Part shown: one piece after another, positions 19,921 through 28,967 of the stretch
Layout of the letters: each line of letters starts with the position of its first letter
Numbering within the stretch: position 1 is the first letter of the stretch
Sequence record: NC_070981.1
DNA: 64,000 nucleotides
Strand: one strand, 5' to 3'
Source: Escherichia phage EK010
The notes under the pieces: generated by a model
Databases searched by the model: none
The model's input: only the letters and a program-made list of their open reading frames with translations
Told to the model about the DNA's origin: nothing
Program-made: the position numbers and the translations under genes

Positions 19921-20241
19921 ATGACCGATAAGGCGAAACGTGATTATGCACAAGAACGAAGAACTGCAATCGCAAGGGGTGAAACCGGCGTTGGTAGCAA
20001 GAGCGGAGATGCTCAGCGCCACCGTGCACGTCGCATCGTTGAAAAGCGCGATGGAAAAGCTGCTGTCCGAGGTAAAGATGTTGGACATAAACGATCAATC
20101 AAGTCGGGAGGTTCTAATGCGTCAAGTAACTTACGTGTTGAATCAGTCTCTCGAAATCGCTCGAACGGCGGCAAAAGTGGAGATCGTGCTGGAAAATCAG
20201 CAGGAGGAGTCAAATCGAGAAAAGGCGCTCTAAGTCAATGA
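19921..20241 (+). CDS. basic Arg/Lys/Gly/Ser-rich protein (106 aa); region also open in a second + frame
   Basis: AAGGAG RBS 5 nt before ATG 19921; TAATGTATA motif 35 nt upstream; alternative ORF 19940-20233 in another frame. Confidence 0.45.
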   Translation: MTDKAKRDYAQERRTAIARGETGVGSKSGDAQRHRARRIVEKRDGKAAVRGKDVGHKRSIKSGGSNASSNLRVESVSRNRSNGGKSGDRAGKSAGGVKSRKGALSQ

Positions 20242-26791: not shown

Positions 26792-27532
26792 ATGTCTATG
26801 ATCCCTGAACTGTCTGTATCCCGTAAATCCAACTACGATGTAATCCCTGATGGTGAGTACGAAGCACGTATTGTTCGTGTTGTAGGTTTGGGTGTTCACA
26901 ATCGTGACCCTTGGATTGACCCTAAAACCAAAGCAGTTACTCCTAAGAACCCAGCTTTCCGTATGGACTTAGCTTTTGAGCTGATTGGCGTAGATGCAAC
27001 AGGGACTGATAATGAAGGCAAACCTCTGGACCCTCGCCCTGCTTGCCAGTTTAAATCTTTCGATGTAAATCCACGAGCTAAGAACTCTGGTATTCTGAAT
27101 CTGATTAAAATGATCGACCCAAGTGTTCAAGCACTGAAAGGTGATTTGGGTTGGTTTAAAGATATGCTGTTAGGTCAGCCTGTTAACATTCTGGTTAATT
27201 CCTATGTAAACAAAGCTGGTGAGAAGAAAAACTCTATTAAGAGTATCACTCCAATTCCGACCAAATATCGTGATGCTGTAGGTGCTCCTCGTAGTGAGTT
27301 GATCTTCTTCGAACCGTATGCTGAGACTGATGCTAACTTAGCTGCTTATCAAGCAATCTTCCCATTCCAACGTAACCTCTTGACTCAAGCTAACGATGCT
27401 AAGAACATTCCTCTGGCTGGTCGTGAAGTTACCAAAGCTTCTGACACTGAACAGAAGGACGCAACTCCGAGTATCCCTACTATTAATGAAGAGCCGCAGT
27501 CTACCTTTGAAGAGGACGACTCTCCTTTCTGA
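26792..27532 (+). CDS. single-stranded DNA-binding protein-like
   Basis: Acidic C-terminal tail ending 'EEDDSPF' (compare bacterial SSB 'DDDIPF'); follows a promoter-rich intergenic region. Confidence 0.5.
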   Translation: MSMIPELSVSRKSNYDVIPDGEYEARIVRVVGLGVHNRDPWIDPKTKAVTPKNPAFRMDLAFELIGVDATGTDNEGKPLDPRPACQFKSFDVNPRAKNSGILNLIKMIDPSVQALKGDLGWFKDMLLGQPVNILVNSYVNKAGEKKNSIKSITPIPTKYRDAVGAPRSELIFFEPYAETDANLAAYQAIFPFQRNLLTQANDAKNIPLAGREVTKASDTEQKDATPSIPTINEEPQSTFEEDDSPF

Positions 27533-27555
27533 TGAATCTCTCCTTGTAATAGCTT

Positions 27556-27578
27556 AGCCACCTTCGGGTGGCTTTTTT
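27556..27578 (+). terminator. rho-independent terminator (UUCG tetraloop)
   Basis: AGCCACC-TTCG-GGTGGCT followed by TTTTTT, after SSB-like gene. Confidence 0.7.
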
Positions 27579-27591
27579 CGTTGGAGTTAAA

Positions 27592-27933
27592 ATGGAAAAG
27601 CTTCAAAACAATATAGGCTTTCTTATTTTCACAGCTCTTATTTTCTTTGGTGGAATGAAGTTTGAGCAATATCGAAACGATAGCAGTGCTCTTGACCAAG
27701 AGAAGAAACAACAAGAGATAGAGATTGAGAGAGCCAAGGCTGCTGATGAAGTAGCTCAGAAAGTTCTTACCGGTTTAACTAACTGGAAGAAGAACACGGA
27801 AACTATTTACAAAGAGATGCATTATGAAAAGACTAAGCCAGTTTTTTACAATGTGTGTGCTAGCGATGAGTATGTCTCTTTATTTAACCAAAGACAGGAA
27901 GAAGCTAAGAGGGTTTTAAAATCGAAGGAATAG
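27592..27933 (+). CDS. membrane protein with N-terminal TM helix and helical periplasmic region (i-spanin-like)
   Basis: ATG 27592 with GGAG RBS; 'IGFLIFTALIFFGG' TM segment then charged helical region. Confidence 0.4.
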   Translation: MEKLQNNIGFLIFTALIFFGGMKFEQYRNDSSALDQEKKQQEIEIERAKAADEVAQKVLTGLTNWKKNTETIYKEMHYEKTKPVFYNVCASDEYVSLFNQRQEEAKRVLKSKE

Positions 27934-27956
27934 AAGAGTTTTTATCCTATGATGAA

Positions 27957-28415
27957 ATGTCAGGAAAACTAACGTGGAGAAGCTCTGAAAAGAAGAGCAA
28001 TCAATGGAACTCTAGGTTTGCTGGAAAAGAGGCTGGCTGTTTGATAGATGCTGGATACATTGTTGTGAGGTTTAATGGGAAAGCACATAAAGCTCACAGA
28101 GTGGCTTGGTATTTAAAAACAGGAGAAATCCCTGATACTGATATCGACCACAAAGATCAGATTAAATCTAACAATTCTTGGACCAACCTGAGAAAAGCAA
28201 CCAATGCGCAGAATCAGATGAATACATCTGCTCAGAAGAATTCTATAACAGGTATAAAAGGTGTCGGATATAGAAAGGATGTTAACAAGTGGACTGCTCG
28301 AATAGGGTTTGAGGATAAAGTTATTTGGCTTGGTTTTCATGATACACTGGAAGGAGCTAAGTGTGCATATAAAGAAAAAGCTATTGAGTTGTACGGGGAT
28401 TTTGCTAGCTTTTAG
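27957..28415 (+). CDS. HNH homing endonuclease with AP2-like domain
   Basis: 'IDHKDQIKSNNSWTNLRKATNAQN' plus AP2-like region; conserved N-terminal motif continues upstream of the first ATG. Confidence 0.6.
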   Translation: MSGKLTWRSSEKKSNQWNSRFAGKEAGCLIDAGYIVVRFNGKAHKAHRVAWYLKTGEIPDTDIDHKDQIKSNNSWTNLRKATNAQNQMNTSAQKNSITGIKGVGYRKDVNKWTARIGFEDKVIWLGFHDTLEGAKCAYKEKAIELYGDFASF

Positions 28416-28629
28416 TTTATCAGCTTGTTCAACGAGCGACAACAGCAGGCAATCAATGCCCTTACCAACAAACCTAAAAGCTGAATGTAGAGTTGACCTA
28501 CCTCTTTTAGAGAGTGCTCAAGGGAAGGCACTAGCCACTACGTTGGAGTGGTATCAGGACCAGTACACAGAATGTGCTGCTAATCACAATGGATTGTTAG
28601 AAGCTCTGAAAGAGCGTGGAATAGAATAA
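28363..28629 (+). CDS. lipoprotein (candidate o-spanin or exclusion lipoprotein), GTG start
   Basis: GTG 28363 with AAGGAG RBS 6 nt upstream; signal peptide 'MHIKKKLLSCTGILLAFSLSAC' with L-S-A-C lipobox. Confidence 0.45.
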   Translation: MHIKKKLLSCTGILLAFSLSACSTSDNSRQSMPLPTNLKAECRVDLPLLESAQGKALATTLEWYQDQYTECAANHNGLLEALKERGIE

Positions 28630-28967
28630 TGGAAGTCCTTAATTTCTACAAAGAGGGGTTGAAGATTCCAGAAGGCGCTATTTACATAGGAAGATATAGT
28701 GCCAAGCATGGTCTACCACAATCTAAGTATCACAACCCAATAAAGCTCCAAGAGGGTGAGCCAAGAGGTTCTACTCTGGATAAGTATAGGAAATATTTAT
28801 GGGGTGAGATAAAAGCTGGCAGAATAACTGTGGAAGAGCTTGCAAATCTGTATGGAACAAACCTTGTGTGTTATTGTAAGCCCAAACCTTGTCATGGGGA
28901 TATCCTTATGGCTGCTATAAAATGGGCAAAAGAAGAAATGGATAATGCTATAACTAAGGAAAGATGA
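28629..28967 (+). CDS. hypothetical protein with '[13 protein letters not shown]' motif
   Basis: ATG overlapping upstream stop. Confidence 0.5.

Follow-up and report, generated by a model that had tools for sequence, protein, structure and literature searches.

In the spanin loci of T5-like siphophages, a homing endonuclease gene has been described between the i-spanin and o-spanin genes. Comparison of T5 with Shivani and phiR201 shows an overlapped gene pair on the one side and a separated pair on the other, and the C-terminal tip of the i-spanin and the signal sequence of the o-spanin differ between the two states (PMC6139136). As Kongari et al. (2018; PMC6139136) pointed out, the new N-terminus of the o-spanin still has to include a lipoylation signal. 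Here we analyse a comparable locus at positions 27,592 to 28,415 of a 64,000-nucleotide (nt) stretch of Escherichia phage EK010 (NC_070981.1), the whole of which is referred to below as the window. The locus carries a gene for a predicted HNH-AP2 homing endonuclease within a cassette in the spanin genes, and our main finding is that this gene probably begins at an AUC codon at position 27921, upstream of its annotated ATG. Whereas the T5-like enzyme is of the GIY-YIG type and is found in siphophages (PMC6139136), the window encodes an HNH-AP2 enzyme in a Kuravirus-like podophage; unlike in the T5-like loci, the proposed start of the endonuclease gene and that of the rebuilt o-spanin each overlap the coding sequence of a neighbour.

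A second described case is the ‘hidden’ HNH element in a methylase gene of mycobacteriophage ShiLan, which is likewise inserted without an intron or intein and likewise raises the question of how translation begins at a non-ATG start (PMC11855218). That element is read through in frame by its host gene and has a GTG start with no detectable ribosome-binding site (PMC11855218), whereas the window cassette replaces the ends of the genes that it interrupts and has a clear Shine-Dalgarno sequence. For the start codon itself, the nearest likeness is to infC and pcnB of Escherichia coli, in which a near-cognate AUN start (AUU) follows a Shine-Dalgarno sequence and initiation is low-level. The window differs from these genes in having AUC (AUU in sister cassettes) as a candidate start and in showing no sign of IF3-type autoregulation. 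An HNH-AP2 homing endonuclease, an endonuclease gene that separates spanin genes and a near-cognate start codon are each of a known kind; literature searches for homing endonucleases with an AUU/ATT start found no precedent.

Conserved coding sequence upstream of the annotated start

A preliminary description of this DNA had placed the conserved N-terminal motif of the HNH endonuclease upstream of the first canonical start codon, and our analysis bears this out. After the frame-0 stop TAA at 27906-27908 the DNA reads GAG GGT TTT AAA ATC GAA GGA ATA GAA GAG TTT TTA TCC TAT GAT GAA ATG, which translates as E-G-F-K-I-E-G-I-E-E-F-L-S-Y-D-E-M; ATC lies at 27921 and ATA at 27930, and there is no ATG, GTG or TTG before the ATG at 27957. 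The two HNH paralogs with which the motif had been compared are both present in the window (MIQDDLEYNPKTGDFFW from 17152 and MIPISDYLSYDPDTGLLIF from 20238), and both have ATG starts.

The endonuclease was aligned with 57 relatives, picked as near full-length and single-domain (55 database homologs and the two window paralogs; n=58). The homolog set came from an exhaustive protein search, a word-indexed search having given five hits only. The family is large, with 97,187 homolog clusters at an E-value of at most 1e-3 and a match in 3,523 phage records. Tyr10 is a tyrosine in 55 of the 58 aligned sequences, Gly15 does not vary at all, and at least 90% of the sequences have Trp19. In all 57 relatives the conserved tyrosine is preceded by 7-20 residues, and none begins after it; a start at the ATC gives nine, and both Leu8 and Tyr10 are encoded 5′ of ATG 27957. 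Judged by this alignment, the N-terminal motif is real and no chance match.

The gene product is, on the evidence of sequence comparison and modelling, a free-standing I-HmuI-like HNH homing endonuclease with a probable AP2 domain. The residues of a beta-beta-alpha-metal HNH site (D-H, then N...N) are present: His77 is invariant in the alignment, whilst Asp76, Asn85, Asn89, Asn98 and Asn101, each conserved in at least 90% of the sequences, align with the DH...N motif of I-HmuI. This HNH homing/nicking endonuclease of phage SPO1 (PDB 1U3E) was the top Foldseek match to the predicted structure (E-value 3.6e-4, 109 aligned columns, probability 1.0), with marginal sequence similarity (E-value 0.029). 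The two proteins share the aligned HNH motif (DH then NxxN) and the approximately 50 residues that precede it; unlike the window gene, which is free-standing and has a C-terminal AP2-like domain, I-HmuI is intron-encoded and lacks that domain. The AP2 assignment is tentative. The Pfam score of 27.3 bits for PF00847 falls under the cut-off of 33.3; however, the region matches the WRI1 AP2 sequence in the PDB (7WQ5, E-value 2.5e-4), and in Foldseek the C-terminal half matches plant AP2/ERF domain structures with a probability of 1.0.

The HNH_3 plus AP2 family of phage proteins, of which the T5-like F-Tfl enzymes are annotated members, has the same two-domain layout and the same N-terminal motif, L-x-Y-D-x-x-T/S-G-x-x-x-W. 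Typical members differ in having an ATG 7-20 residues before the conserved tyrosine, where the window gene has ATC. The AlphaFold model of the 164-residue protein is confident throughout (mean predicted local distance difference test score (pLDDT) 96.4, predicted template modelling score 0.84), including residues 1-10 (pLDDT 96). It has strands at residues 8-10 (L-S-Y) and 17-19 (L-T-W), adjacent in sequence, which we read as an N-terminal beta-hairpin. A start at ATG 27957 would remove the first of these strands together with the near-invariant Tyr10.

One homolog (P0107; L009 1453-1455, JGI metagenome contig Ga0497965_0026985) has an in-frame TGA inside the motif, L-K-Y-Q-P-stop-T-G-N-I-I-W; this distant homolog may be a pseudogene, may contain a sequencing error or may belong to a TGA-recoded phage.

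Conservation of the AUC codon and its Shine-Dalgarno sequence

Escherichia phage E20-1 (Kuravirus, Gordonclarkvirinae) matches the region at 99.9% identity, and we assign the window to a Kuravirus-like E. coli podophage. Approximately 97 related records of E. coli and Shigella podophages match the region; seven of the 97 carry the cassette (at least 80% of the query covered) and it is absent from about 90 related genomes. The cassette-bearing genomes (n=8) fall into a window type (window/E20-1, KM01 and ERR4682339) and an SU7 type (SU7, PAS59, Bas86, Bas87 and SRR13494272), with 66% DNA identity between the types (34% of positions differ) and saturation at synonymous sites. A search of IMG/VR for further orthologs returned only distant paralogs (at most 40% identity).

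All eight cassettes have ATC (four genomes) or ATT (four genomes) in the column of 27921, and all eight have GAGG or GGAGG 7 nt before it, GGAGG being the form of the SU7 type. The predicted duplex with the 3′ end of 16S rRNA is −6.3 kcal/mol in the window type and −9.5 kcal/mol in the SU7 type. For reference, the median for 38 long open reading frames (ORFs) of the window is −5.85 kcal/mol, and 9% of positions taken at random score −6.0 or better. Position 27921 has what is expected of a near-cognate AUN start: a Shine-Dalgarno sequence within 5-9 nt, conserved coding sequence with no canonical start ahead of it, and a location backed by orthologs.

The annotated start at codon 13 behaves differently. 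Across the eight genomes the column of 27957 reads ATG, GTG, GTG, GTT, GTT, GCT, GCT and ACT, and in the SU7 type the first canonical start after the ATT lies 36 codons on in SU7 and PAS59 and 48 codons on in Bas86 and Bas87; SRR13494272 has its gene called from the downstream start of SU7. Could ATG 27957 (GTG in KM01 and ERR4682339) nevertheless be the sole functional start in the window lineage, with the upstream motif a leftover and an enzyme that works without its first 12 residues? Codon 13 is canonical in three of three window-type genomes, gene callers and the records of E20-1 and KM01 start there, and the sequence upstream of 27957 is AU-rich. AU-rich upstream sequence can support Shine-Dalgarno-independent initiation. 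However, at +0.3 kcal/mol the site has no Shine-Dalgarno sequence, its use would delete a strand of the confidently modelled hairpin along with Tyr10, and not one of the 57 relatives begins after that residue. In addition, the five SU7-type genomes have no start in this column, yet their gene is under purifying selection, and the differences between the types in codons 5-11 are mostly synonymous (five synonymous and two nonsynonymous, window against SU7), which argues against a start at codon 13 only. We consider this explanation unlikely, although it deserves to be kept in mind for the window lineage.

Selection on the upstream codons can be seen within the SU7 type. In codons 5-35, SU7 and Bas87 differ by eight synonymous and three nonsynonymous changes, giving a ratio of nonsynonymous to synonymous substitution rates (dN/dS) of 0.07 (p approximately 3e-4 against neutrality; binomial, calculated by hand from the counts), compared with 0.13 in the rest of the gene. 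The codons upstream of the canonical starts show purifying selection in these sequence comparisons.

Two more distant uncultured relatives (L025 and L026) have loci that match the Kuravirus spanin loci and the same order of i-spanin, HNH endonuclease and o-spanin genes. They read AAGGGAGACACTAA ATG GAA GAA TTC (L025) and GAGAGGCTTTGA GTG GAA ACC TTA (L026), with both starts exactly at the ATC column, an in-frame stop directly before the start and a Shine-Dalgarno sequence 5-6 nt upstream. The closest full-length homologs, P0008 (164 amino acids) and P0010 (167 amino acids), are both encoded in this i-spanin/HNH/o-spanin arrangement, and their methionines, like that of the window paralog at 20238, align at the ATC column. 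As the outgroups have ATG or GTG in this column, the homologous initiation site in the window is position 27921. In the ancestor of the E. coli Kuravirus cassettes, ATC/ATT most likely took the place of a canonical start, and these alignments indicate that the gene has since remained whole and under constraint throughout the divergence of both cassette types.

The preliminary description had offered two readings of the displaced motif, repeated use of AUN start codons or a decaying endonuclease copy. The comparison supports an AUN start for this one gene: the Shine-Dalgarno sequence, the ATC/ATT in eight of eight cassettes and the ATG/GTG of the outgroups all favour ATC 27921 over ATA 27930. 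The ATA codon was rejected, as the closest Shine-Dalgarno-like sequence runs right up to it and leaves no spacer, and the aligned codon in the SU7 type is TTA. Nor do truncated-looking homologs in general seem to use non-canonical starts: in one of them, P0104, a Shine-Dalgarno sequence and an ordinary GTG lie upstream, and another is P0107, with the TGA in its motif.

The second reading finds no support in the comparison. It would mean that the start codon was lost (ATG/GTG to ATC/ATT), that no useful translation occurs and that the gene is decaying. The ATG/GTG of the outgroup cassettes at the position of the E. coli ATC/ATT does suggest that a canonical start was probably lost, and the HNH ORFs of PAS59 and SU7 differ by four nonsynonymous changes (D11N, Y18C, H21Q and one E-to-D) and no synonymous ones, which may reflect relaxed constraint in PAS59. 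Against decay, the 164-codon frame is intact in all eight cassettes despite the divergence between the two types; dN/dS is 0.03-0.13 wherever synonymous divergence between two genomes could be measured, and every such pair shares ATC/ATT; catalytic and structural residues, including the invariant His77, are conserved in a protein with a confident structure model; and the occurrence of the cassette in differing flanking backgrounds (see below) points to continuing mobility. Decay is therefore very unlikely, and the odd position of the motif is most likely a problem of start calling.

We also weighed a programmed −1 frameshift at the heptamer T_TTA_AAA (27915-27921), by which ribosomes translating the i-spanin gene would switch to the frame of the endonuclease and make a fusion protein. 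Read in the i-spanin frame, the heptamer has the X_XXY_YYZ form, and slipping back by one nucleotide would bring ribosomes into the open HNH frame just ahead of the ATC. However, it occurs only in window-type cassettes, the SU7 type reading CTG AAA TTA AAG or CTG AAA TCG AAG, and is on that account probably fortuitous; no significant RNA structure lies downstream (z-score 0.11); and a fusion would place the enzyme in the wrong compartment, as the C-terminus of an i-spanin is periplasmic in the established spanin topology (PMC6139136). We give frameshifting hardly any credence. Regulatory RNA structure around the start was rejected as well, the fold of 27880-27990 being no more stable than shuffled sequence (the same z-score of 0.11).

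A cassette that replaces the ends of the spanin genes

The features of the locus are collected in Table 1. The cassette was delimited by alignment with relatives that lack it: UKE3 and Paul have nothing corresponding to window positions of approximately 27876-28420, and their i-spanin and o-spanin genes overlap there. The DNA of the empty site in cassette-less relatives such as Paul and 101114UKE3 reads GATGAGTATGT/CAGCTTGTTCAACGAGCG, the slash marking the point of insertion; the empty site GAGTATGT/CAGCTTGTTC encodes both the C-terminal part of the i-spanin (YVSLFNERQQQA.NALTNKPKS, then a stop) and the lipobox of the o-spanin (MSMSAC). In six of six cassettes measured, of both types, 547 bp lie between GT and GCTTGTTC.

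Table 1. Coordinates of the endonuclease cassette, its proposed translation signals and the neighbouring spanin features in the window
Feature	Position	Strand	Basis and remarks
HNH-AP2 homing endonuclease ORF as proposed	27921..28415	+	164 codons plus stop
Proposed start ATC (AUC)	27921..27923	+	12 codons upstream of the annotated ATG
Shine-Dalgarno-like AAGAGGG	27907..27913	+	7 nt upstream of ATC 27921
Annotated start ATG (codon 13)	27957..27959	+	E20-1 annotation; variable column, duplex +0.3 kcal/mol (no Shine-Dalgarno sequence)
HNH_3 catalytic domain, residues 57-100	28089..28220	+	Pfam PF13392, 57.6 bits, cut-off 24.8
AP2-type DNA-binding domain, residues 110-159	28248..28397	+	Pfam PF00847, WRI1 AP2 PDB match, Foldseek
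Cassette	27876..28420	+	~545 bp, ends uncertain by 2 nt; alignment with cassette-less relatives
i-spanin (Rz-like) gene	27592..27933	+	RefSeq/CPT annotation of SU7 and Paul orthologs; alignments
Replacement i-spanin tail SLFNQRQEEAKRVLKSKE, then stop	27876-27933	+	Last 19 codons, from the first 58 nt of the cassette
Native i-spanin tail SLFNERQQQAINALTNKPKS, then stop	28422..28484	+	Detached from the i-spanin gene; kept only as o-spanin coding sequence
Old o-spanin start remnant, 31-codon ORF MKRLSQFFTMCVLAMSMS...	27824..27919	+	Cassette cuts inside the lipobox
Shine-Dalgarno GGAAGGAG of the replacement o-spanin start	28349..28356	+	Duplex −8.0 kcal/mol, spacer 5
Rebuilt o-spanin	28363..28629	+	GTG 28363; SU7 O-spanin annotated from the aligned ATG with a ribosome-binding site

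The cassette appears to keep both lysis genes intact by supplying them with replacement ends. At its 5′ end it provides a new i-spanin tail, which in SU7-type cassettes is a visibly diverged duplicate of the native tail. The Shine-Dalgarno sequence of the endonuclease arose within this duplicated tail by substitution (native GCAGCTAATGCC against GCAGCGGAGGCA; GCT AAT GCC to GCG GAG GCA). At its 3′ end, the last approximately 60 nt encode a new signal peptide for the o-spanin, MHIKKKLLSCTGILLAFSLSAC, whose lipobox is LSAC; its coding sequence overlaps the end of the HNH gene in the +1 frame, and this new lipoprotein signal is joined to the old mature o-spanin. The former o-spanin start is left as a remnant upstream of the cassette; in Paul, the o-spanin starts at the homologous ATG with a signal supported by LipoP. 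The spanin identities are tentative and rest on the annotations of SU7 and Paul (in which TMpred and LipoP are cited) and on the LSAC lipobox after a KKK-hydrophobic leader; neither protein has a Pfam match.

The sequences flanking the insertion are of differing ancestry. The upstream flank (27592-27875, the body of the i-spanin gene) is 93-95% identical to Bas87 and UKE3 and 80% identical to KM01 and Paul; conversely, the cassette and the downstream o-spanin (27876-28629) are 96-98% identical to KM01 and Paul and 77-78% identical to SU7, Bas87 and UKE3. Such mosaic flanks fit homing with co-conversion of one flank. Sporadic presence at one fixed site in close relatives, with flanks of differing ancestry, is the pattern of a homing gene, and the differing backgrounds suggest continuing mobility.

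An insertion of this kind might instead be taken for a self-splicing intron in the i-spanin gene with the endonuclease encoded inside it. The Bas86 and Bas87 records do describe the Rz-like spanin as a two-piece ‘join’ around the HNH gene (L003 and L008, 1392-2284), and the base before the insertion is a T, as at group I 5′ splice sites. However, a permissive Rfam scan of 27500-28700 gave no match to group I or II introns at an E-value of 10 or less, only sub-threshold small RNA and small nucleolar RNA families. Of the approximately 545 bp, 495 are taken up by the 164-codon ORF, and a ribozyme would have to fit into flanking stretches of 45 nt and about 5 nt; an i-spanin tail supplied in frame with its own stop and a new o-spanin signal peptide would be pointless if they were spliced out; and joining at the homology breakpoints of the SU7 type would not restore the native reading frame. 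The BASEL paper itself has only homing endonuclease insertions, never introns, and leaves the join annotation undiscussed. An intron is, in our judgement, scarcely credible, and we prefer a free-standing endonuclease gene whose cassette supplies replacement gene ends.

Just 5′ of the i-spanin ATG at 27592, a GC-rich hairpin is followed by a run of T residues at 27556-27582 (AGCCACCTTCGGGTGGCT TTTTTCG), and Paul has an annotated terminator in the same intergenic position upstream of its i-spanin gene. With this element upstream, the lysis genes and the endonuclease gene may need read-through or a promoter of their own.

Annotation of related records

In six public records, the 5′ end of the endonuclease gene is truncated in three different ways: at codon 13 in E20-1 and KM01, at codon 37 in SU7 and PAS59, and at codon 49 in Bas86 and Bas87. 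The o-spanin of E20-1 (ORF34, 28456-28629), KM01, PAS59, Bas86/87 and UKE3 is annotated as a protein of 57 residues from an internal ATG (MPLPTNLK...), a version without the signal peptide and lipobox cysteine. The GTG at 28363, with GGAAGGAG 5 nt upstream, fits better as the o-spanin start than this internal ATG.

Discussion

Our data are consistent with a model in which translation of the endonuclease starts at AUC 27921, within the i-spanin tail that the cassette supplies. Initiation there with formylmethionine would give the 164-residue protein with its whole N-terminal hairpin. Reporters in E. coli show initiation from AUA, AUC, AUU and CUG at 1-2% of the level of AUG, and AUC-initiated green fluorescent protein has an N-terminal methionine (bioRxiv 10.1101/063800). 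At such rates for AUC and AUU, low-level production of the nuclease is to be expected, and a low output would suit a nuclease. Terminating ribosomes may plausibly assist by reinitiation at AUC 27921, as two stops lie nearby: that of the i-spanin gene follows the ATC by 7 nt, and the TAA at 27917-19, which ends the remnant of the old o-spanin leader in window-type cassettes, precedes it by 1 nt. The comparisons show where the ancestral start lay, that ATC/ATT and the Shine-Dalgarno sequence are conserved and that the upstream codons are under purifying selection. Present-day use of the AUC codon, selection for low expression and coupling to upstream translation are the parts of the model that we infer. 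Taken as a whole, low-level initiation at AUC 27921 is the best reading of the endonuclease start and a reasonably probable one.

Several points weigh against this conclusion. AUC is a poor start codon; among natural non-canonical starts of E. coli, AUU (infC and pcnB) was the only one to have been confirmed (bioRxiv 10.1101/063800). The eight genomes represent two cassette lineages only, plus two outgroups. A 152-residue product from the canonical codon 13 (ATG/GTG) is possible in the three window-type genomes. Lastly, the Shine-Dalgarno sequence and the ATC lie within i-spanin coding sequence, so that their conservation could partly reflect the i-spanin; as a counterpoint, the sequence of the tail differs between the two cassette types.

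It is tempting to view the AUC/AUU start as a selected throttle and not as a tolerated defect, as it has been kept with a strong Shine-Dalgarno sequence across 34% DNA divergence. We put this forward tentatively, as a possibility that we doubt more than we believe. If it were true, nuclease output would be held to approximately 1% of the AUG level and tied to translation of the lysis genes, and the gene would offer a natural example of AUC initiation in an E. coli system, for which AUU alone (infC, pcnB) had been confirmed.

Overall, the comparative evidence corrects the 5′ ends of the endonuclease genes, the loss of the o-spanin signal peptide and the spliced i-spanin of Bas86 and Bas87 in current records. 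We regard the endonuclease gene as a well-supported candidate for an E. coli phage gene that is naturally initiated at AUC/AUU. Its cassette also shows how a homing endonuclease can reside inside two overlapping lysis genes by means of replacement gene ends, without an intron or intein.

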